64,000 nucleotides of DNA, taken from Minisyncoccota bacterium. GTDB taxonomy: Bacteria; Patescibacteriota; Minisyncoccia; Phycocordibacterales; UBA9973. A model generated the notes under the pieces. It was given only the letters and a program-made list of their open reading frames with translations, was not told where the DNA came from and ran no database searches. The stretch spans positions 740-64,739 of the forward strand of contig JBAZRK010000002.1 in assembly GCA_041663005.1 (NCBI GenBank), read 5' to 3'. Below, piece after piece: positions 1 through 63,752 of the stretch. Each line of letters opens with the position of its first letter. Position 1 is the first letter of the stretch. Made by a program: the position numbers and the translations under genes.

Positions 1-715
<715 letters not shown>

Positions 716-4792: not shown

Positions 4793-7210
4793 CTAGTAGA
4801 CCAATGCCTGGATTTTTTCTTTAGTTTTCGGACCCACAATTCCATCTGAAACTAAACCATTTCCTATTTGCCATTTTTCTACTTCTGCTTCAGTTTTAGG
4901 GCCAAATTTACCATCAACTGACAAAGTCGCATGGACAGTATCGTTTAGATAATTTTGCAAATCTTCAACTGCCGGACCTAGGCTACCTCGCCTTAAGGTT
5001 CTCGATCCTAAATTATAAGTTTTCTGGTTTTGGGATACTATTGTGTCAGCTGTCACGCTGGCGTTGTCGGCGGCAGCTTTCGCGACGTCAGGTTGGTCGG
5101 AATTATCAAACCCACCTGCTGGTTTAGCCCCGACTGTCACAGTAGCTTGTGCCGAGCAAGCCTCTACTCCCCCAATCTTACCATAGACTCGGCAAGTGGT
5201 TGTCTTGGTCAAATTAGGAATTGTGTAAGGCGTTGTAGGTTCAGCTGAAATTTGAGTTTCTCCCGCACCACAATCGCCGTAAGTTTGCCCTAGGTCTGCG
5301 CCGACTACTTTCCAGGTTTCAGTGACTGAGCCACCATAAGGAATGGCCGTGGTGTTGAAAGTGAGGAAAGCGCTACAACTACCGGGCGGTGGCGTAGGAG
5401 TGTAGTTGAACAAAGGATTAGTGTTTGCTCCACCCGCTAAGCTTAAGTCTAGTTTGTATACTAGGAATCTTTGTTCCCGCTGCATGCCCAATATCAAGTA
5501 GCCCCCTTGGGTTACCGTAATACTATTAAGTGAATCATTGGTCGAATATGGTAAAGCAAGCTCATCTATTTTCTGCCCATCTTTCCATAATATTATACTG
5601 GAACTATATGTCGTAATAATTGCTCCTCCGGAACTCTTATAAGAGCCATTCGGTACTTGGCCTACAAATAAGACATAGTCCCCCCAGACCGCAAAATACC
5701 TGGCTTGTTTACGAAATGTCGGTCCAGCAACTTCTTTCTTTGTTCCCTCAGGTATATTAATAGTTTTATCCAGAACAATATCGTTTGTTGTCGCTCGAAA
5801 TATATTCACCTTAGCTGGACCCTTGCCACCAAATGAATCTGTCGTAAATTCCCAGGAAGCCAAACGCGGTGGCCAAACAGAATTATCAAATGTATATACT
5901 GCGCTACCTTTTACTGGTAAATTTTTTAGAAGAGTCCTAGAACCACCTGCAGAAACCTTGTATGCGCTCCAAGTTTCTCCTTTGGCACTAATCCAGAAAT
6001 CGCCGAAACCAAAATTGTTTAAATTCTCTCCATTTACATTTCCTTCAACCTTGTCCCAGCCACCTACGGTTCCAAGCTTGTTCCAGTCAGGCAAGCCTAA
6101 TAACCTCCCTTCTCGAGTTATCAGTCGATCTTTAAGTACCACATTTGTAAAGTCAGAGCCGTTTCCGAGTGTGGATATTGAAGATACGCTCAATTCACCA
6201 GCATCGTCTATATCGTAATATACCGAGTAGTTGATACCTCCAGGATAATATTCTGCGCAATCTCCCGGTTCTCCACTGGGGCCAGGATTTGAGCACGCCA
6301 TACCAGCAGCTTCATCTACTGATCTTATGGGATGAACAAAAGATCCCAAATCACTAGCCCAATTAATCAAAATCTCCGATGCAATTAATCCCCCCATGTG
6401 ACCCATGCTCCATGCTCCACTACTAGAATCATCACAACCATCTCTTGAAGAAAGAATAGCTGAACCATCTTCTTTCATTACCCACAGATTGGGCGAGAGA
6501 ATACAATTACCACCTATCACCATCTTGTCTTTCATACCTGCAACACTGGTAATATAAAAAGAGGAGTGATCTTTTGGATTTGCCTTTAGTCCTTCTTTGA
6601 TAAATTTAATTTTTCCGTTAGTGGAAGAAGGAGTTGCGGAAGTTATTGGCGGAGGAACATAAGCAGCGGGCTTTGTTTTAACTTTAAAATTAACGTAGCC
6701 ATCTTCGGTGCAAGCTGTGCCTTTATATGTGTAGTTGGCCTTTATTCTGACTTTCGTTTCGCCCACAGAGCTCGGTGTTCCTGCTGCATATACACGCAAC
6801 CATGGTCCTTTTGAAGAAACTCCTGGCGCAGCATAGCTAGTAATTTCTCTACCGTAAGTCAATTCTTTAGTCTTAAATGCGCTTATGCCGGCGGGAAGCG
6901 GATCAACTGCGGAAACCGTAATGGTTCCAAAAACTGAAACTGGCAAAAGTCCGCCCGGATCCGTAAGGTTAGAATCCGAATCCCAGCTACTGCCATAACT
7001 TTGGCCAGCGTATAGAGAAAGGCTATGGGTATTGGTATAAGCCAATGTGCCTGGTGCTTCGTCCGAAAAATAGCCCAGCACGCTAGAACAATCCGAAGAA
7101 CCAATGTCGCGAACTGCTCTGCCTTTAGCTGAGACATTACTAAAACTAGCCGACAAGAGGAGCAGTGCTAAGAGGCTCCATCCTGCGACCTTAAAGAATA
7201 TTTTTTTCAT
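4793..7210 (-). CDS. Large secreted surface protein with C-terminal peptidoglycan-binding domain
   Basis: Signal peptide. C-terminal ...LQNYLNDTVHATLSVDGKFGPKTEAEVEKWQIGNGLVSDGIVGPKTKEKI. 805 aa. Confidence 0.7.
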   Translation of the reverse strand: MKKIFFKVAGWSLLALLLLSASFSNVSAKGRAVRDIGSSDCSSVLGYFSDEAPGTLAYTNTHSLSLYAGQSYGSSWDSDSNLTDPGGLLPVSVFGTITVSAVDPLPAGISAFKTKELTYGREITSYAAPGVSSKGPWLRVYAAGTPSSVGETKVRIKANYTYKGTACTEDGYVNFKVKTKPAAYVPPPITSATPSSTNGKIKFIKEGLKANPKDHSSFYITSVAGMKDKMVIGGNCILSPNLWVMKEDGSAILSSRDGCDDSSSGAWSMGHMGGLIASEILINWASDLGSFVHPIRSVDEAAGMACSNPGPSGEPGDCAEYYPGGINYSVYYDIDDAGELSVSSISTLGNGSDFTNVVLKDRLITREGRLLGLPDWNKLGTVGGWDKVEGNVNGENLNNFGFGDFWISAKGETWSAYKVSAGGSRTLLKNLPVKGSAVYTFDNSVWPPRLASWEFTTDSFGGKGPAKVNIFRATTNDIVLDKTINIPEGTKKEVAGPTFRKQARYFAVWGDYVLFVGQVPNGSYKSSGGAIITTYSSSIILWKDGQKIDELALPYSTNDSLNSITVTQGGYLILGMQREQRFLVYKLDLSLAGGANTNPLFNYTPTPPPGSCSAFLTFNTTAIPYGGSVTETWKVVGADLGQTYGDCGAGETQISAEPTTPYTIPNLTKTTTCRVYGKIGGVEACSAQATVTVGAKPAGGFDNSDQPDVAKAAADNASVTADTIVSQNQKTYNLGSRTLRRGSLGPAVEDLQNYLNDTVHATLSVDGKFGPKTEAEVEKWQIGNGLVSDGIVGPKTKEKIQALVY

Positions 7211-40804: not shown

Positions 40805-41275
40805 TCATGGGGATTTTACTATCCTAAAAATCCTAACATTTTTTTCAATGCGGAGGTTTTTCAGTCTGTTATAGAATTCCTTGGGTAATGGTCCGTAGCC
40901 CAACCATAAACTCTGGTGGATCATTTCAAAGTCCCAAAACTTTATTTGATTACGTAGCCAATCTCGAGTTTTGCTTTTAATCTGTGGTATATCAAAGGAA
41001 ACCAAAAGCTTGTATCGCCTGAGTGGCTCAACATTTTTTATGACAAAACGCGAGTTAATTGCCACCAGTCTGGTCTTTTTTGCCTGAAGATAAATACCGT
41101 GATTAATTACCGCCCTTTTTTTATATAAACGATAGAGGTATTGATTGAACGCGGTTTTACGCAAATTACTTTTTCTAGCCTTGGCCTTCTCCCACAAAAT
41201 ATTTCGATAGATTTTTTGAGATCTAGCGGATAATAAAAAGGCTATAAGGTCATCGCTCCAAGTATTTTCCTGCAT
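40805..41275 (-). CDS. Hypothetical protein with a Cas2-like C-terminal region (orphan)
   Basis: LLVSFDIPQIKSKTRDWLRNQIKFWDFEMIHQSLW...EKNVRIFRI loosely follows the Cas2 pattern (lVlV.YDi....r.r.kv.k.l..yG.rvQ.SVfec...d.vRiy.l). Weak. Confidence 0.35.
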   Translation of the reverse strand: MQENTWSDDLIAFLLSARSQKIYRNILWEKAKARKSNLRKTAFNQYLYRLYKKRAVINHGIYLQAKKTRLVAINSRFVIKNVEPLRRYKLLVSFDIPQIKSKTRDWLRNQIKFWDFEMIHQSLWLGYGPLPKEFYNRLKNLRIEKNVRIFRIVKSP

Positions 41276-41330: not shown

Positions 41331-44300
41331 CTATTCAATAATCACTTCTTTTTCCACTTTTGCGCGGAAAATTAAATTGTTGATTTTTATTTCTTCGCCG
41401 TCATTATGAGCAAATTTTATTTCCGAGGCCAAAACGGTTTTCTTCAAATCCGTTTCGAATTTACCCACGAGCTCCTGCCCGGCAGTGTTTGTATCGATTA
41501 TGAGCTTCACTGTGTCGCTCGGAGTGAGGCCTGTTTTCTTGCGTAGCTCCTGAAGCGCACGCACTAACTCGCGGTAATTTCCTTCTTCTTTAAGCTCCGC
41601 AGTCAGCTCTGTATCGAGCTCTAGGTCGGGTGCCATATTTTTATCCTCTTCAACTTTTTTGATATTGAGTTCCTCGGCAATTATGTGCTGGAATTTCTGC
41701 GGCAGCGTAATTTTTATTTTTATTTTTGTAAGCGGCTGCTTTACTGGCAGGTTCTCAAGCTGTCTCGCTTTCAGTCCGGCTGAAACGATGTTCCTTACAG
41801 TCTTCATATCTAGGATTATTTTCCTGACTTTACCTTTTTCAAAAACCACCTTGATTTGCCCGATTATATTTTTCGTCGGCCAGCTTTCTAGGTGTACGCT
41901 TTCCTTGTCGCCCGCTATGCGAAGCCTCTGCCAGATATCCTCCGCGGCGAAAGGTGCAAAAGGCGCAAGCAACTTGGAAAGGGTCTTCAGTACGTAGTAG
42001 AGCGTTCGTTTCGCATCATTATCTCCGTCTTTTATTCTTTCGCGGGAACGTCGCAAATACCACGTCGACAGGTCGCCAATGAAATCCCTAATCGCGCGAA
42101 CAGGTTCAAGGAGTTTGTAACTATCCATACTTTTAGTCATCAAATCTATGAGCTCATCCATTCGGCCTAAAATCCAGATATCCAAAACGTTTTGAGTTTG
42201 GGGGCGTACATTAGTCTCGAGGGCTTCGTCGCGATACAATTCATAGAAGAAAAGTACATTGTAAAGCAGACCGAATACCTGGCCCTGGAGAAGGGCAACA
42301 GTTTTCTCGTCGAAATTTTTAGACTCGCCCGGCTGGTTCACAGAATACATCCAAAGCCTAAGAGTATCTACACCATATTTATCCATAGCTTCCCAAGGGT
42401 CTACAATGTTCCCGAGAGATTTAGACATTTTTTTGCCCCTGGAATCCATTAAGTGTCCTAAGCAAATCACGTTTTTAAATGCTTTACCTTTACCCATTAG
42501 TACACCAATAGCGTGCAGAGTGTAAAACCATCCCCGGGTTTGATCTATAGCTTCGGCGATGAAGTCCGCAGGGTAACCCTTGCCTTCCACCCACTTTTGA
42601 TTTTCAAAAGGGTAGTGATCCTGGGCAAAAGGCATCGCTCCAGAGTCAAACCAAACATCCATAACTTCTTTCGTGCGGACAAGTTTCCCGCCACAATCGC
42701 AGACAAGATTAATTTCATCAATGTATGGACGGTGTAAATCAAGTTCATAAGTTTCGTTGTGAGGAAGTGGTACAAAAGCAAGCTCAGAAATTTGAGCATT
42801 ATCCACACTTGGAAGATGATTAAGCCCCACCGTCAATTCGCTGTATGACAAATTCTTAACAATAAAATTTAACGAGCGGATTACCCCGTCATGGCTACTA
42901 ATAAAAATATTTTTATTCGAATATTTCTGTTCCAGCTCATAAATAAATTGCCCCACACGCTTTACTAGTTCGACAAAGCTCTCCCCTCCAGGTAAAGCTT
43001 CTCTGGGGTTGTAAAAGAATCCCTGGCGATAATAATCCAAAAATTCAGCCGGGTCCTTACCATCGAAAACGGTACTAGTTTCCCACTCCTGGATGCGTTT
43101 GTCGTAGATAACTTGCTCCAAAGGAAAGTTTAACTCTTCACAAAGAATTTTCGTAGTTTCTCGCGCCCTATTGTAAGGAGAAGAGATAACAATATCAATT
43201 TTTTCCTTGAAATTTTTAGCACTTCCTAGCACCTGAGATTGGCCCACGTCAGTCAAATGTGCGATCTCTTGCAGCTTCTTTGTATGTATGTTTTCTCGAA
43301 GATTATTCCCAGCTTGTCCGTGGCGCATTACGAAATATTTGTTGCCGGATTTCTTGGTTCGAGCCTCAAGGTCTGCGACACTGCCTAAGACTTCAATTTT
43401 TTTACATTTCTCGCAGTGCCAGACAGGAAGCGGCGTACCCCAGTAGCGCTCGCGTGAGATAGCCCAATCTTTAATTTCCCGCAGCCACTCGCCGAAACGC
43501 CCTTCGCGGATGTGCGACGGTTCCCAATTTATGTCCTTGTTCTCAGTAATCAGCGCGGATTTTATTTTCGGATCCGACATTTTTATATACCAAGAATCTC
43601 GCGCATAATAAATAAGCGCGGTGTGACAACGCCAGCAATGCGGATACGAGTGCTCATATTTTTCTTTCTTATATAGAAGCCCGCGGTGCGCTAAATCCTT
43701 GATTATATCCACGGCAACTTCTTCGTCTTTAACAAATCTGCCCTCAAAGATTCCGGTGCCTGGTAAAAATTTCCCATCAAGCCCCACCAAGTGGTGCTTC
43801 GGCAAGCCTACTTCAACCCCGAGGAGAAAGTCGTCTTGCCCGTACATCACAGCGGTGTGCACCACGCCCGTACCATCGTCGGTGGTGACGAAGTTCGCCT
43901 TGTGTACCTTGTAAGCTTTTTCCAATTTTGGTTTTTCACTCTCGGGAATTGTGTTTAAGAAATATGGGAACAGGGGTTCGTACTCTAGGCCCACTAAACC
44001 CTCCCCTTTTATCTCCTCTACAATCTCGTATGGGTCGGCAATGATGGAGAGTTGTGCTTTCGCTAGGAAATAAAATTCATTTGTAGCGTCTTTAGCAACT
44101 TTAATTTTTACATAATCGATATCCTGCCCCACTGCCAGCGCCACGTTCCCTGGCAAGGTCCATGGTGTCGTGGTCCAAGCAAGGATGTATGTGTTGTCAG
44201 CGCCTTTAATCTTAAATTTAGCAGTGACCGATAAATCTTTCACATCCTCGTAACCCTGAGCAAGCTCATGTGAAGACAGCACCGTACCGCACCTTGGACA

Positions 44301-44849
44301 CCAAGGCACAACTTTATAATCTTTATAAAGAAGTTTCTCCGCGTTTACTTTCTGGACGATATTCCAAACTGATTCTATGAAATTATTGTGATAGGTAACG
44401 TACGGATTTTCTTGATCCACCCAGAAACCGATACGGCGAGTAAACTTGTTCCAAATATCCAAATATTCCCAGACACTTTCTTTGCATTCTTGGTTGAATT
44501 TAGCGATACCGTATTCTTCAATAGCTTTCTTGGAATTAAGTCCGAGCTTTTTCTCCACTTGAAGCTCCACGGGTAGGCCGTGCGTATCCCATCCTCCTTT
44601 CCGGCGGACATGATACCCCCGCATTGTTTTATAGCGAGGTATCGCGTCCTTGAACGCACGTGCTTCCAGGTGGTGAATGCCTGGCTTGCCGTTCGCCGTC
44701 GGCGGACCTTCGTAAAAAACAAATTCTTTTCGCCCCTTCGACTGATTCAGGCTTTTCGCGAAAATTTTATTCTCTTTCCAGAATTCCAAAATACGCTCTT
44801 CACGCAGTGCCGTCTCACTTTTTTTATTTAAATCTTTTTCTTCTTGCAT
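41331..44849 (-). CDS. ileS: Isoleucine--tRNA ligase carrying an inserted histidine-phosphatase (PGAM-like) domain
   Basis: HIGH (PGIHH) and KMSKS motifs and a CP1 editing region. About 200 aa inserted between ...VLGSVADLEARTKK and DLHRPYIDEI, containing FVMRHGQAGNN and ISSHDGVIRSL (the RHG...H catalytic signature). 1172 aa. Confidence 0.93.
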   Translation of the reverse strand: MQEEKDLNKKSETALREERILEFWKENKIFAKSLNQSKGRKEFVFYEGPPTANGKPGIHHLEARAFKDAIPRYKTMRGYHVRRKGGWDTHGLPVELQVEKKLGLNSKKAIEEYGIAKFNQECKESVWEYLDIWNKFTRRIGFWVDQENPYVTYHNNFIESVWNIVQKVNAEKLLYKDYKVVPWCPRCGTVLSSHELAQGYEDVKDLSVTAKFKIKGADNTYILAWTTTPWTLPGNVALAVGQDIDYVKIKVAKDATNEFYFLAKAQLSIIADPYEIVEEIKGEGLVGLEYEPLFPYFLNTIPESEKPKLEKAYKVHKANFVTTDDGTGVVHTAVMYGQDDFLLGVEVGLPKHHLVGLDGKFLPGTGIFEGRFVKDEEVAVDIIKDLAHRGLLYKKEKYEHSYPHCWRCHTALIYYARDSWYIKMSDPKIKSALITENKDINWEPSHIREGRFGEWLREIKDWAISRERYWGTPLPVWHCEKCKKIEVLGSVADLEARTKKSGNKYFVMRHGQAGNNLRENIHTKKLQEIAHLTDVGQSQVLGSAKNFKEKIDIVISSPYNRARETTKILCEELNFPLEQVIYDKRIQEWETSTVFDGKDPAEFLDYYRQGFFYNPREALPGGESFVELVKRVGQFIYELEQKYSNKNIFISSHDGVIRSLNFIVKNLSYSELTVGLNHLPSVDNAQISELAFVPLPHNETYELDLHRPYIDEINLVCDCGGKLVRTKEVMDVWFDSGAMPFAQDHYPFENQKWVEGKGYPADFIAEAIDQTRGWFYTLHAIGVLMGKGKAFKNVICLGHLMDSRGKKMSKSLGNIVDPWEAMDKYGVDTLRLWMYSVNQPGESKNFDEKTVALLQGQVFGLLYNVLFFYELYRDEALETNVRPQTQNVLDIWILGRMDELIDLMTKSMDSYKLLEPVRAIRDFIGDLSTWYLRRSRERIKDGDNDAKRTLYYVLKTLSKLLAPFAPFAAEDIWQRLRIAGDKESVHLESWPTKNIIGQIKVVFEKGKVRKIILDMKTVRNIVSAGLKARQLENLPVKQPLTKIKIKITLPQKFQHIIAEELNIKKVEEDKNMAPDLELDTELTAELKEEGNYRELVRALQELRKKTGLTPSDTVKLIIDTNTAGQELVGKFETDLKKTVLASEIKFAHNDGEEIKINNLIFRAKVEKEVIIE

Positions 44850-45066
44850 AATATTTTATAAAACAAAAAACCCGTCCCCGTGCAACTAATAATAATTGCA
44901 CAAGGACGAGTTTTCTCGTGGTACCACCTTGTTTGCTTCTCATAACACCGGGTTCTACTAACCTTGCGGTTTTCTTCCCCAGGCTCCAGGGTGATCCTTG
45001 CCCGCCTCTGGCGGGGCCCCTTCAATGCCTATACATAAAGTATAACACGTTTATATATTTTTTCAA
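44850..45066 (-). promoter_or_regulatory. T-box riboswitch-like leader for ileS (Ile AUC specifier), with promoter and intrinsic terminator
   Basis: Promoter -35 TTGAAA (45061..66), 16-nt spacer, -10 TATACT (45039..44). T-box sequence AAGGUGGUACCACG (44916..44929), against the AGGGUGGUACCGCG consensus. Candidate specifier GGAUCACC (AUC at 44992..94). Terminator CGUCCUUGUGCAA...UUGCACGGGGACG-U6 at 44864..44908. Confidence 0.6.
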
Positions 45067-45095
45067 TGTACGTAATACTTTACGTAATATATTCC

Positions 45096-46808
45096 CTACA
45101 TCTTCGCCGGGGCGCGGATACCGAGCAGGTTAAGCCCAGATTTCATTACGAAAGTGAAGGCGAAGGTAAGGGCCACTTTGTACGAAGAAGACTTGTCCTC
45201 TGGGTTTACGATAACATTGTTGCCATAGAAACTATTGAAGGCACGAGCAAGCTCTATGAGGTAGCTCGTGATGTGGTGCGGCTCGTATGCACCCGCGGAG
45301 CGGAGCACAATTTCCGGGAAACGGTAAATTAATTTCTCCACTTCCCAGGCGCTCTCCGGTGCCACGTGAGGGTCTGGCAATACGTTTTCCTTTTTAGCTT
45401 TCTCAAGGACTGAGTTTGCGCGGGCGTAGGAGTAACAGAGATAGGGCCCAGAGTCGCCGTCGAAGGAAATGGACTTTTCAAAATCATAAACGATGTCGCC
45501 CCCGATGGATTGCTTTAAGATTGAATATTTTAAGGCGGACACAGCCACGTCAGTAGCAATTTTTTCTTTCTCTTTGTCGGTAAAGTCCCGAGCCTGCATT
45601 TTCTGCCAGACCAATTCCTTTACATCACGGAGAAGTGACTCACCGGTAATGACGTTGCCGGTACGTGAGCCCATTTTCCCTGAAGCGAAGCGCATCATTC
45701 CGTGGGTAATATGCCGCATTTTATTTTCATACTCAGGATGAATGAGCGAGAGAGCTTTCGTCACCACACGCATATAGTCAGCTTGCTCGTTGGCAGTAAT
45801 GGTGATAGAGAGGTCCATATTGGGCTCAGTTTTAAATTTCTCGAGTGCCAACCCGAGCTCCTTGGTTTCATAAGTAGGTAAGCCCTGCGATGTAATGAAA
45901 ACTCTGGTATGGAGTTTCGGGTCATAATCCTCAGCCCTGAAAACTACGGCATTGTCGCTCTCAGTAAATACTTTGCCTTTATTTTCAAGCACTATCTCTT
46001 CCCCAATTCCGGCCATCACGCTTTCTAGGAAATAATAATCGAATTCTGTACCTAAAATTTCATACAAATCTTCAAAGGCCTTCATCGTAGCATCGAAACC
46101 CCAGTCATACAGAGTGTTGAGTTTTTCGTCGCTCCGTTTGTAAATCTTTTTATTGATTTCATCAATTTCTTTTTTAGCTTCACTGTCCTTCTCGTAAGCC
46201 GTAGCACCCAGCACGTAAGCACTGCCGATATTAGCTGCTTCGGCTTTATGAGAACCAAGCTTTTCGGCTAGAGTAGGGTCTTTTGTAAGTCCGTAAATTG
46301 CTTTGGCTACGTGAAGCCCGATATCTCCCTGATAGTTGGCACGAGCTACTTGAGCTCCGGAATGCTCGAGCACACGAGCTATAGATTCTCCAATGGCATT
46401 GGTCATTAAATGCCCGATATGGAAAGGTTTGAAAGGATTGGGATCGGTATATTCCACCATTATTTTCTTCCCGGTAAGTGTCGCATTTTTCCCTGTGTCT
46501 TCACCGTCGTTTAAAATTTCTTCAACGTTCTCTGAGAAAAATTCTCGGGAGAGATAGAAATTTATAAATCCCGGCCCTGCAAGCTCCATTCTTGCAATTT
46601 TTTGCGGCAGATTTTTCTCAATTTCTAATATTATTTTTTGCGCCAACTCTTGCGGCTTCATTTTTGCTTCTTTGCCGGCCACTAGCGCCACGTTCGTGAA
46701 ATAGTCGCCGTTTTTCAAATCTTCAGGGTGCTCCACCGCAAAATCGCATTCGGCAATGCCCAAATTTTTCAAAACATCTTTTATTATTCTCTCTATTTTT
46801 TCTTGCAT
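45096..46808 (-). CDS. argS: Arginine--tRNA ligase
   Basis: N-terminal Arg_tRNA_synt_N-like region, HIGH-like PFHIGHL, and a DALR-type C-terminus. Confidence 0.92.
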   Translation of the reverse strand: MQEKIERIIKDVLKNLGIAECDFAVEHPEDLKNGDYFTNVALVAGKEAKMKPQELAQKIILEIEKNLPQKIARMELAGPGFINFYLSREFFSENVEEILNDGEDTGKNATLTGKKIMVEYTDPNPFKPFHIGHLMTNAIGESIARVLEHSGAQVARANYQGDIGLHVAKAIYGLTKDPTLAEKLGSHKAEAANIGSAYVLGATAYEKDSEAKKEIDEINKKIYKRSDEKLNTLYDWGFDATMKAFEDLYEILGTEFDYYFLESVMAGIGEEIVLENKGKVFTESDNAVVFRAEDYDPKLHTRVFITSQGLPTYETKELGLALEKFKTEPNMDLSITITANEQADYMRVVTKALSLIHPEYENKMRHITHGMMRFASGKMGSRTGNVITGESLLRDVKELVWQKMQARDFTDKEKEKIATDVAVSALKYSILKQSIGGDIVYDFEKSISFDGDSGPYLCYSYARANSVLEKAKKENVLPDPHVAPESAWEVEKLIYRFPEIVLRSAGAYEPHHITSYLIELARAFNSFYGNNVIVNPEDKSSSYKVALTFAFTFVMKSGLNLLGIRAPAKM

Positions 46809-61970: not shown

Positions 61971-63752
61971 TTATTCCGACACGACTCGGAATACTTCCTC
62001 AAGTGTAGTCACCCCAAGTACCGCCTGGAAAACTCCGTCCTCCACCATAGTCATCATTCCTTCTTTCTTTGCCTGCACTTCTATCTGGTCCTGGGAACCT
62101 CCGCCAACAATCAATTCTTTAATTGCCGTCGAAACTTTCAACACTTCGTGCATTCCGGTACGGCTGGAATACCCGTCTTCGAACTCACTCGTCGACACCG
62201 GTTTATAAAATGGCACCTTCTCCCAAGTATCTTCCGGCCCGATGATTTTTTCTTCTTTTAGAAATCCCAAAACACGGTCAAGGTCCACAACTTTACTTAA
62301 ATTTTTAAGTTCGGTCGGAGACAAGAAGTACTTTTCTTTGCTTGGAGTAAGCTTACGTACAAGTCTCTGGGCAATTATAGTCTTAACTGTCGCAGTGATC
62401 AGGAAGGGCTCCACGCCCATATCTATCATACGAGGAATGGCCCCCGCAGCGGAGTTCGTATGGATGGTAGAGAGCACCAAGTGACCAGTGAGCGAAGCGT
62501 TAACTGCAAGTCCGGCGGTTTCACCGTCGCGAATTTCTCCAACCATTATGATGTCCGGGTCCTGCCTCAACAGAGATCGGAGTCCATTGGCAAAAGTGAG
62601 TCCTATTTCCGGCTTCACTTGGGTTTGGTTTACTCGCGGCATTTGATATTCGATAGGGTCTTCCACGGTAGAAATATTTACTTCGGGTTTGTTTAAAATT
62701 TCGAGCATTGTGTAAAGTGTCGTGGTCTTACCGCTACCGGTCGGACCCGTCGCGAGGACCATCCCCGTTTTTTGTTTCAAAGAATTATAAATTCGCTCCA
62801 ATCCCTCGCCGTGAAAGCCCAAGCCCTCGAGCGAGAAGCCTTTCGCATTTTCTTTAAGTATTCGCATCACCGTCTTCTCGCCGAAGAAAGTCGGCAAGGT
62901 GGAAACACGAAAGGAAATTTTCTCCCCGTTTTGTTCTATTTTAAATCTGCCGTCCTGAGGCAAACGCTTCTCGTCGAGTTTCAAATTCGAAAGAACTTTA
63001 ATGCGAGCGGTTATCCCCGACCCGGCACCCTTCTCGAGCACCATCGCATCGTGGAGAAGTCCGTCGATGCGGTAACGCACTGTAAGCTCCTTCTCCCCCG
63101 GCTCAATGTGGATGTCGGAAGCATTCTGGAGAATAGCGTGGAAAATAAGCGAGTCGACAATTTTCACCACCGGCAAGTCTTCCGCCATTTTTTTCAACTC
63201 TGCTTCTGTCTTCTCGGGAACTTTCTCGCCCGGCTGGGTTCCCGCTTCACCCTTGTCATCTTCTGCTACTTTCAGCGTGCTGGCTTCCTTTTGAATAATG
63301 TCTTGAAATTCCGCCTTCAAACTCTGTCGATACTGGACTAATACTGACTTAATAGAATTCGCATCCGTAAGCCGTGGCAGAATTTTAAGCCCCGAGCGTT
63401 TCTTGATGAAATCAATCACGGGCAAATCATCCACATCAAGCATCGCAACTTCGAGAGAATCTTTTTCTTTCTTATAAGCAACAATGTTCGAGTTCCGGGC
63501 AATAGGCTCAGGGATGAGTGAGAGCACCGAGAAGTCTATTTTCACATTTGCGAGGTCGATAAAAGGGATACCTAAAACGAAGGCTTCCACTCGCTTCATA
63601 TCTACCTCTGTAATTTTCCCTTCCGAGAGCAGGATGTTACTTACTTTTTGCTTTTTCTCGTCGGCTTTTGTAAAAGCGTCTTCAAGGTCGGACTTAGAAA
63701 CCAGACCAGACTCTAAAATATATTTCTTGAGCTGCTCTTCGTTGATTTGCAT
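61971..63752 (-). CDS. pilB: Type IV pilus assembly ATPase PilB / GspE family
   Basis: Walker A GPTGSGKTTT, Asp box, and His box (LVLSTIHTN). Confidence 0.93.
   Translation of the reverse strand: MQINEEQLKKYILESGLVSKSDLEDAFTKADEKKQKVSNILLSEGKITEVDMKRVEAFVLGIPFIDLANVKIDFSVLSLIPEPIARNSNIVAYKKEKDSLEVAMLDVDDLPVIDFIKKRSGLKILPRLTDANSIKSVLVQYRQSLKAEFQDIIQKEASTLKVAEDDKGEAGTQPGEKVPEKTEAELKKMAEDLPVVKIVDSLIFHAILQNASDIHIEPGEKELTVRYRIDGLLHDAMVLEKGAGSGITARIKVLSNLKLDEKRLPQDGRFKIEQNGEKISFRVSTLPTFFGEKTVMRILKENAKGFSLEGLGFHGEGLERIYNSLKQKTGMVLATGPTGSGKTTTLYTMLEILNKPEVNISTVEDPIEYQMPRVNQTQVKPEIGLTFANGLRSLLRQDPDIIMVGEIRDGETAGLAVNASLTGHLVLSTIHTNSAAGAIPRMIDMGVEPFLITATVKTIIAQRLVRKLTPSKEKYFLSPTELKNLSKVVDLDRVLGFLKEEKIIGPEDTWEKVPFYKPVSTSEFEDGYSSRTGMHEVLKVSTAIKELIVGGGSQDQIEVQAKKEGMMTMVEDGVFQAVLGVTTLEEVFRVVSE

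Follow-up and report, generated by a model that had tools for sequence, protein, structure and literature searches.

A compact T-box-like leader with a terminator read-out upstream of ileS in a Patescibacteria genome

The leader that precedes the isoleucyl-tRNA synthetase gene (ileS) in the 64,000-nt stretch of DNA analysed here (hereafter the window) is very probably a T-box riboswitch, which would sense uncharged tRNA-Ile and control ileS by transcription attenuation. Judged from its sequence, the leader is a genuine member of the T-box family; it is unusually compact, having kept its terminator but not three parts regarded as necessary in textbook T-boxes. The parts of the element, their conservation in relatives, covariation behind each of the two alternative structures and the association with ileS were all observed. 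A truncated decoding module similar to that of class II elements is joined to a class-I-like terminator read-out and is reduced further, which makes the leader an apparent variant not found among the named classes. A T-box in front of ileS is ordinary as such; the architecture and the host are the interesting part.

The original prediction had placed the leader upstream of ileS, and the downstream open reading frame is indeed that of isoleucyl-tRNA synthetase (IleRS). The argS-ileS gene pair lies on the minus strand with a spacer of 246 nt, in which the structured leader takes up 165 nt (45029-44865, minus strand) between a promoter and the ileS start. The ATG of ileS is at 44849, with 15 nt between the U tract and the ATG. 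The promoter proposed earlier for the leader (TTGAAA, a 16-nt spacer and TATACT) is present, and its -10 box is of the extended form TGnTATACT (45047-45039, with the TG at 45047-45046). The predicted transcription start, about 8 nt past the -10 box, falls at about 45032-45030, which is 1-3 nt ahead of Stem I. A -10-like TAT(A/T)NT stands in the same register before the element across the relatives described below; the extended -10 motif TGnTAnnnT was found 16-18 nt ahead of the element in 25 of 38 members and anywhere within 55 nt upstream in 28 of 38, and TTGCAA is common at the -35 position among the relatives. Given this fixed -10 register, Stem I would therefore start at the extreme 5' end of the transcript. 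No U-tract terminator was found after argS, so that read-through from argS would presumably be gated by the leader too. No Shine-Dalgarno motif was detected in the 25 nt inspected upstream of ileS or within the terminator hairpin, and even a loose 4-mer of this kind accompanies only 9 of 48 genes in the window. Many gene starts in this host lie 5-15 nt downstream of a TATAAT sequence. The coordinates of all features are collected in Table 1.

Table 1. Features of the argS-ileS region, with positions in the window.
Feature	Coordinates	Strand	Description and evidence
argS (arginyl-tRNA synthetase ORF), gene upstream of the leader	45096..46808	(-)	TIGR00456, 368.6 bits
Sigma-70-type promoter	45039..45066	(-)	-35 TTGAAA 45066-45061; 16-nt spacer; -10 TATACT 45044-45039; 10/12 consensus matches
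Truncated Stem I	44982..45029	(-)	Sequence, RF00230 alignment and covariation in relatives
Specifier AUC (Ile) and purine	44992..44995	(-)	AUC 44995-44993, purine A 44992; within GGAUCACC, directly 5' of the closing helix
Stem II	44950..44980	(-)	Lower helix GGG/CCC; S-turn strands; upper helix ACC/GGU with GCAA tetraloop
Single-stranded linker GGUGUUAUGAGAAGCAAA, 19 nt	44932..44949	(-)	Conserved purine block AUGAGAAG at 44943-44936
Antiterminator	44901..44931	(-)	Helix A1 CAAGG/CCUUG; 7-nt bulge UGGUACC 44926-44920; helix A2 ACGAG/CUCGU, AAAA loop
Intrinsic terminator	44865..44914	(-)	22-bp hairpin, arms 44914-44893 / 44888-44867; U6 44870-44865
ileS (IleRS, 1172 aa)	41331..44849	(-)	TIGR00392, 852.5 bits vs cut-off 621; Pfam tRNA-synt_1 and Anticodon_1

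When the window was scanned with Rfam at gathering thresholds, only a 23S rRNA fragment was reported and no T-box. A permissive local scan gave RF00230 as by far the best match to the leader, from end to end of the model (positions 1-219). The covariance scan that the original prediction had proposed as a check thus has two sides: the match is significant (E 4.7e-7), but its 38.3 bits lie below the RF00230 gathering score of 93 bits. Matches of the leader to microRNA and small-RNA families (E 0.03-10) were rejected, being merely the terminator hairpin or AT-rich palindromes. In the RF00230 alignment of the window, the K-turn, the Stem I helix and the T-box/antiterminator region are placed at high posterior probability and the Stem II/III region poorly. 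Nine relatives scored 38-75 bits against the same model, with E-values down to 1.9e-14; in the relative L069 (75.2 bits), Stem II, the F-box pseudoknot and Stem III were all aligned. At the gathering threshold RF00230 gave no match in the window or in 19 relatives. Sub-threshold E-values of 4.7e-7 to 1.9e-14 still point to homology, and most of the shortfall in score corresponds to the missing segment of Stem I. Standard Rfam annotation misses the leader clade-wide because its scores are 38-75 bits against the required 93.

Relatives were collected with the N-terminal 495 aa of IleRS searched against one genome per species, which yielded 80 loci at 69-85% identity, almost all of them in metagenome-assembled genomes labelled Paceibacterota, Nomurabacteria, Parcubacteria or Patescibacteria, which places the host in the candidate phyla radiation. 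In 37 of the 80 loci the coding strand carries an exact GGTGGTACC ahead of ileS. A covariance model (R1) was then built from nine relatives, with the window excluded and with Stem I, Stem II and the antiterminator assigned by hand. With R1 the window reaches 110.1 bits (E about 5e-18), and a search of 626 kb with this model returned exactly the 37 ileS-upstream loci (60-176 bits) and nothing else credible; other matches, at E 0.02-1, were opposite-strand terminator palindromes and one borderline match. The window holds a second exact GGTGGTACC (20407, plus strand), which was discarded as a T-box: it is antisense inside a 572-aa coding ORF, has no Rfam or R1 match and is put down to chance. The leader is lacking in 43 of the 80 relatives. 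Loci that carry the element have a median argS-ileS spacer of 327 nt; where it is absent, a median of 35 nt (32 being the commonest value) lies between the end of the upstream ORF and ileS. The leader is therefore a self-contained insertion between two conserved neighbours and occurs in about half of the species.

Covariation was counted on a model-based alignment of 38 sequences (the window and 37 relatives), which leans towards the model, and the count was repeated on a structure-blind MAFFT alignment of nine sequences. For the decoding and antiterminator structure, 95.2% of cells are paired in the model-based alignment and 13 of 24 pairs show compensatory changes, with slid controls at 50% paired or below; the MAFFT alignment gave 96.2% paired cells and 10 of 24 compensatory pairs. 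Earlier MAFFT alignments of insert-bearing members were dropped, having misplaced the 5' strand of Stem I or misaligned the locus L072. RNAalifold, run unguided, recovered Stem I, Stem II and the terminator.

The lowest part of Stem I is a K-turn formed by a GGC/GCC C-stem, an AUU bulge and tandem G.A/A.G pairs (GGC-AUU-GA...GA-GCC), which fits the K-turn columns of RF00230 with high posterior probability. It is followed by a 4-bp helix, GGGG/CCCU, and the K-turn and this lower helix (GCAUUGAAGGGG...CCCUGGAGC) are confidently aligned by RF00230. Both the C-stem and the 4-bp helix co-vary in relatives (GGGG/CCCC, GAGG/CCUC, GGAG/CUCC, AGAG/CUCU). Of the two Stem I motifs raised in the original prediction, the K-turn is therefore there and the AG bulge is not: the AG bulge and the distal-loop platform, which contacts the tRNA elbow, are absent in the window copy and in all 38 members. 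The Stem I segment concerned is about 25 nt in the window, compared with 76 model positions in RF00230, and about 6 nt in the simplest relatives. Above the specifier most relatives have nothing at all, Stem I being simply GAAG-NNNN-xxAUCR-NNNN-xGAG; in the window, the specifier loop holds a lineage-specific 6-bp mini-hairpin, CCCGCC-AGA-GGCGGG (45015-45001), and then CAAGG-AUC-A. The AUC (Ile) specifier with a following purine, as had been suggested, has a fixed position in all 38 members, each of them in front of ileS, and reads AUCA in 34 and AUCG in three; one specifier was clipped in the model alignment and was read from the sequence instead.

The S-turn strands of Stem II are GAAGAAA (44977-44971) and UAGUAGAA (44960-44953), of the AGUA/GAA type. 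Among relatives, GGGAAGAAA and AGUAGAACCC of Stem II are near-invariant, as are the S-turn strands GAAGAAA and AGUAGAA, and the upper helix co-varies (CG, UA, AU, GC). The corresponding stretch of L069 is aligned by RF00230 to its Stem II. Neither the Stem IIA/B pseudoknot (F-box) nor Stem III exists in the window copy, in which Stem II is joined to helix A1 by the linker alone. Seventeen of 38 members, the window among them, have 17-19 nt between Stem II and the T-box sequence. The F-box CCGUUA, carried as ACGGGUAAGCCCGUUAUAGC in a IIA/B hairpin, was found in 13 of the 37 relatives; the window and the other 24 relatives lack it. A Stem III hairpin occurs in 18 of 38 members. By module, the 38 members divide into 10 with pseudoknot and Stem III, three with the pseudoknot only, eight with Stem III only and 17, including the window, with neither, and this last class retains the purine block AUGAGAAG in its 17-19-nt linker. 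A kissing interaction between the apical loop of Stem II (UUAAUU in some relatives) and a linker AUUAA was considered as a substitute for the pseudoknot and rejected as not conserved, because in the window the loop is GCAA and the linker differs.

The T-box-like sequence containing UGGU, AAGGUGGUACCACG at 44930-44917, forms the 5' side of the antiterminator and is identical to the consensus AGGGUGGNACCGCG at 12 of 14 positions. From 5' to 3' the antiterminator reads CAAGG, the UGGUACC bulge, ACGAG-AAAA-CUCGU and CCUUG. GGUGGUACC is invariant in 38 of 38 members, and helices A1 and A2 co-vary (CG to UA; AU to GC). The UGGU of the bulge is expected to pair with the 3' ACCA of the tRNA. It predicts an A73 discriminator base, and A73 is usual for bacterial tRNA-Ile. 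ARAGORN detected no tRNA gene in the window, the 80 related loci or the contig extensions L081/L082 and L203/L204, and no tRNA-Ile there or in the metagenome loci.

The intrinsic terminator with its U6 tract was also correctly anticipated, and a run of 5-6 U follows the hairpin in 36 of 38 members, at distances from ileS of 5 to about 350 nt in relatives. The original prediction erred in having the T-box sequence overlap the 5' arm of the terminator: the 14-mer itself does not overlap it, and what the two structures share is CUCGUCCUUG (44910-44901), the antiterminator's 3' strand, which pairs with the T-box sequence in one state and belongs to the terminator 5' arm in the other. Both states can be folded, and the whole leader has a folding z-score of -4.95 relative to shuffles. 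Folded in isolation, the terminator hairpin gave -32 to -34.5 kcal/mol and the antiterminator about -9 to -10.7 kcal/mol. This is the classic situation in T-boxes, where the terminator prevails by default and only a stabilised antiterminator can prevent it. For the terminator, compensatory changes occur in 11 of 20 pairs among the relatives, and the share of paired cells is 95.2%, compared with 34-49% in slid controls, so that the alternation of terminator and antiterminator put forward earlier has covariation behind both helices. A signature of the switch is found where a base of the shared strand changes: at alignment column 346, U is replaced by C in six sequences and the antiterminator and terminator partners are both G in 6/6, and at column 354, five sequences have A for G, and four of these have U at both partner positions. 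Such double covariation of a shared strand is the pattern that a two-state switch would be predicted to leave.

A mechanism can be proposed on this basis. The nascent RNA would fold the K-turn Stem I and display AUC-A, and the Stem II S-turn may be expected to clamp the codon-anticodon duplex, by analogy with the structures of actinobacterial ileS T-boxes. Uncharged tRNA-Ile(GAU) would pair its GAU with AUC and its 3' ACCA with the UGGU of the 7-nt bulge; the second pairing would stabilise the weak antiterminator (about -10 kcal/mol) and allow RNA polymerase to read into ileS. With charged tRNA, the far stronger terminator (about -32 kcal/mol) would capture CUCGUCCUUG and transcription would stop at U6, 15 nt before the start codon. 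We infer the binding of tRNA, the dependence of switching on its charge and the use of the terminator by the host polymerase from the arrangement of the parts. Against this explanation stand the RF00230 score below the gathering threshold, the lack of modules to which published work assigns a role in tRNA binding, and the 43 of the 80 relatives that manage without the leader.

Three other explanations were weighed. The same T-box might act mainly on translation, with the large hairpin as a sequestrator covering the site where ribosomes would land on ileS; a truncated Stem I with a Stem II S-turn module has so far been tied to translational control (PMC7583486; PMC1262725), and the hairpin ends only 15-20 nt before the AUG, where it could hinder 30S binding when folded on the full-length mRNA. 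We consider this unlikely. The U6 tract here and the runs of 5-6 U in 36 of 38 members are a hallmark of intrinsic termination, and a distance of 5 to about 350 nt between U tract and ileS in the relatives agrees with termination but not with the blocking of a start site. The hairpin and the sequence after it contain no Shine-Dalgarno motif, and translational sequestration would probably lack a target, because the genes of the window are essentially without such motifs, which the genome hardly uses.

It is still less likely that the leader is a decaying relic, a former T-box now stripped of its tRNA-binding parts and reduced to a constitutive promoter and a leaky terminator between argS and ileS. 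A relic would hardly be expected to recur in its minimal form in 17 of 38 members that do not vary in the AUC-purine, the S-turn strands, AUGAGAAG or the GGUGGUACC bulge and that show compensatory changes in each of their helices; moreover, an unrelieved terminator of -32 kcal/mol ahead of an essential single-copy synthetase gene would be harmful. These points outweigh what favours decay, namely an elbow platform absent in all members, a IIA/B pseudoknot and Stem III missing in the window copy, the complete lack of the leader in over half of the relatives and the strongly deleterious effect of published pseudoknot deletions (PMC7583486). Least probable of all, to the point of being hardly credible, is a T-box that reads another tRNA through a different frame of the loop, GAU (Asp) or UCA/UCG (Ser). 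GGAUCA does contain GAU, AUC and UCA, and the UCG of the three AUCG members is also a Ser codon. However, any of the four bases A, U, G and C can precede AUC, so that GAU is not conserved, the rule of a codon and purine beside the closing helix fits AUC only, and the regulated gene is ileS in every case.

A T-box that attenuates transcription of ileS without elbow platform, IIA/B pseudoknot or Stem III would be small indeed, and we tentatively raise the possibility, somewhat short of an even chance, that among natural T-boxes which work by transcriptional control its architecture is the smallest, and that no T-box family had been documented in the candidate phyla radiation before it, with every intermediate stage of the reduction kept in sister genomes. 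A search of open-access papers found no literature on T-boxes in the Candidate Phyla Radiation, Patescibacteria, Parcubacteria or Saccharibacteria, and an earlier description is possible. The stepwise loss of modules among close relatives provides, ready-made by nature, a set of deletions with which the need for each contact could be tested. Standard Rfam annotation misses this regulon entirely in Patescibacteria, and the leader adds one of the few recognisable RNA regulators for very small genomes with almost no Shine-Dalgarno-led translation.

Transcriptional T-boxes generally require a long Stem I platform (PMC7583486), in current models for fast capture of the tRNA (PMC7583486, PMC11297988). 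Translational T-boxes, most of them actinobacterial ileS leaders, typically have a Stem I of intermediate or ultrashort length (PMC7583486), and platform-less ileS T-boxes are held in the same models to depend on the Stem IIA/B pseudoknot and are tied to translational control (PMC7583486, PMC11297988). Deletion of the pseudoknot in Nocardia farcinica ileS cost about 1200-fold in tRNA binding (PMC7583486), and in Mycobacterium tuberculosis ileS pseudoknot-linker contacts and a conserved RAG motif are critical (PMC11297988). The actinobacterial ileS T-boxes sequester a Shine-Dalgarno box and do not terminate transcription (PMC1262725). The truncated-Stem-I model of TBDB has been applied only to Actinobacteria and to class I matches with a truncated Stem I (PMC7778990). 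These models are challenged by a clade whose terminators are driven by a decoding module without a platform.

The leader shares with class I T-boxes of Firmicutes (RF00230; Bacillus subtilis tyrS and ileS) the K-turn, a specifier and purine that match the synthetase, the Stem II S-turn, a 14-nt T-box with UGGN in a 7-nt bulge, and an antiterminator that excludes a terminator with U tract. It differs from them in having no AG bulge or distal platform, and in the window copy no IIA/B pseudoknot or Stem III. The glyQS T-boxes offer another likeness, being naturally reduced elements that act by transcription antitermination with part of the standard modules missing. In glyQS leaders a long Stem I, elbow platform included, and Stem III are retained. 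What glyQS leaders lack is the Stem II domain (PMC7583486), whereas the element of the window has Stem II but neither the platform nor Stem III. The class II ileS T-boxes of Actinobacteria (M. tuberculosis, N. farcinica), as described earlier (Sherwood et al., 2015, cited in PMC7583486; PMC1262725), are similar in the regulated gene ileS and the AUC specifier, the truncated Stem I with the codon in or near the terminal loop, the lack of an elbow platform and the reliance on the Stem II S-turn. Their F-box pseudoknot is retained by 13 relatives of the window element, whereas the window copy and 16 relatives have neither the pseudoknot nor Stem III, both reported to be important for tRNA binding. 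The read-out of the leader is a terminator with a U tract in place of a Shine-Dalgarno-sequestering helix, and its hosts are Patescibacteria, whereas those of the class II elements are Actinobacteria.

The argS-ileS neighbourhood is conserved across the ileS loci of 80 related species (L001-L080, one genome per species); 37 of these species representatives carry the T-box leader and 43 lack it. At the 43 leaderless loci the gap between the end of the upstream ORF and ileS has a median length of 35 nt and is most often 32 nt. Since the presence of the leader is patchy relative to IleRS identity over the 80 loci, the distribution suggests that the leader has been lost repeatedly among the relatives. 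Two further elements were found in some of the leaders. The loop of antiterminator helix A2 carries an additional hairpin of 20-40 nt in several relatives (L040, L044, L058, L079, L070, L073, L001, and L053), e.g., GUCCGUUCG...CGAAUUAGGA. In other relatives (L010, L023, L028, L040, L046, L053, L070, and L073) an additional hairpin is located between Stem I and Stem II, so that a three-way junction takes the place of the simple K-turn region.

The IleRS encoded in the window (41331-44849, minus strand) has its catalytic domain split by an inserted histidine-phosphatase domain (E 4.3e-23), with the RHG motif located in 'FVMRHGQ'. By tblastn the same insert was detected in ileS of 78 of the 80 relatives, T-box-bearing and T-box-less alike. 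To our knowledge, no function has been described for a phosphatase domain within an IleRS.

Shine-Dalgarno motifs are nearly absent from the window: of 48 ORF starts, just 9 have even a loose 4-mer within the preceding 25 nt. Many ORF starts are preceded at 5-15 nt by a TATAAT-like box. The scarcity of the former and the proximity of the latter suggest that leaderless or near-leaderless mRNAs would be the norm here. The arms of a 15-nt inverted repeat flank the ileS promoter, one of them overlapping the -10 box and the predicted transcription start; the repeat may form a 3'-terminal hairpin in argS transcripts, serve as an operator, or be a chance product of AT-rich sequence. Compared with the bacterial model, the 5' end of the 23S rRNA gene has about 30 extra nucleotides inserted close to model position 282. 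The rRNA genes appear unlinked, because neither 16S nor tRNA genes were found upstream of the 23S rRNA gene within the window.

Features in the window and on two metagenome contigs (L117, L121); R1, covariance model built from leaders of nine relatives
Feature	Position	Strand	Remark
23S rRNA gene, 5' end	1-711	-	494 bits
His_Phos_1 insert	IleRS residues about 506-673; DNA about 42831-43334	-	Pfam match
ORF after TATAAT-like box (example)	40805-41275		starts 5-15 nt after box
ORF after TATAAT-like box (example)	61971-63752		starts 5-15 nt after box
ORF after TATAAT-like box (example)	4793-7210		starts 5-15 nt after box
15-nt inverted repeat	45032-45046 and 45072-45086		87% complementary
T-box-like leader	L121:1764-1910	-	upstream of ProRS gene; Rfam T-box, 36.6 bits
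T-box-like leader	L117:8215-8358	-	upstream of ArgRS gene; R1, only 40.8 bits

Further reduced T-box-like leaders, with the AAGGUGGUACCACG core in common, were found on L121 and L117. The Stem I loop of the L121 leader reads UUUCCCG, in which CCC is possibly the specifier, and no obvious terminator was found in this leader. The L117 leader has a terminator and the loop AGUCGCGA, with CGC as a possible specifier; the ArgRS encoded downstream is fused to a B3/B4 domain. Given these leaders before ProRS and ArgRS genes, T-boxes with a truncated Stem I may therefore extend beyond ileS.
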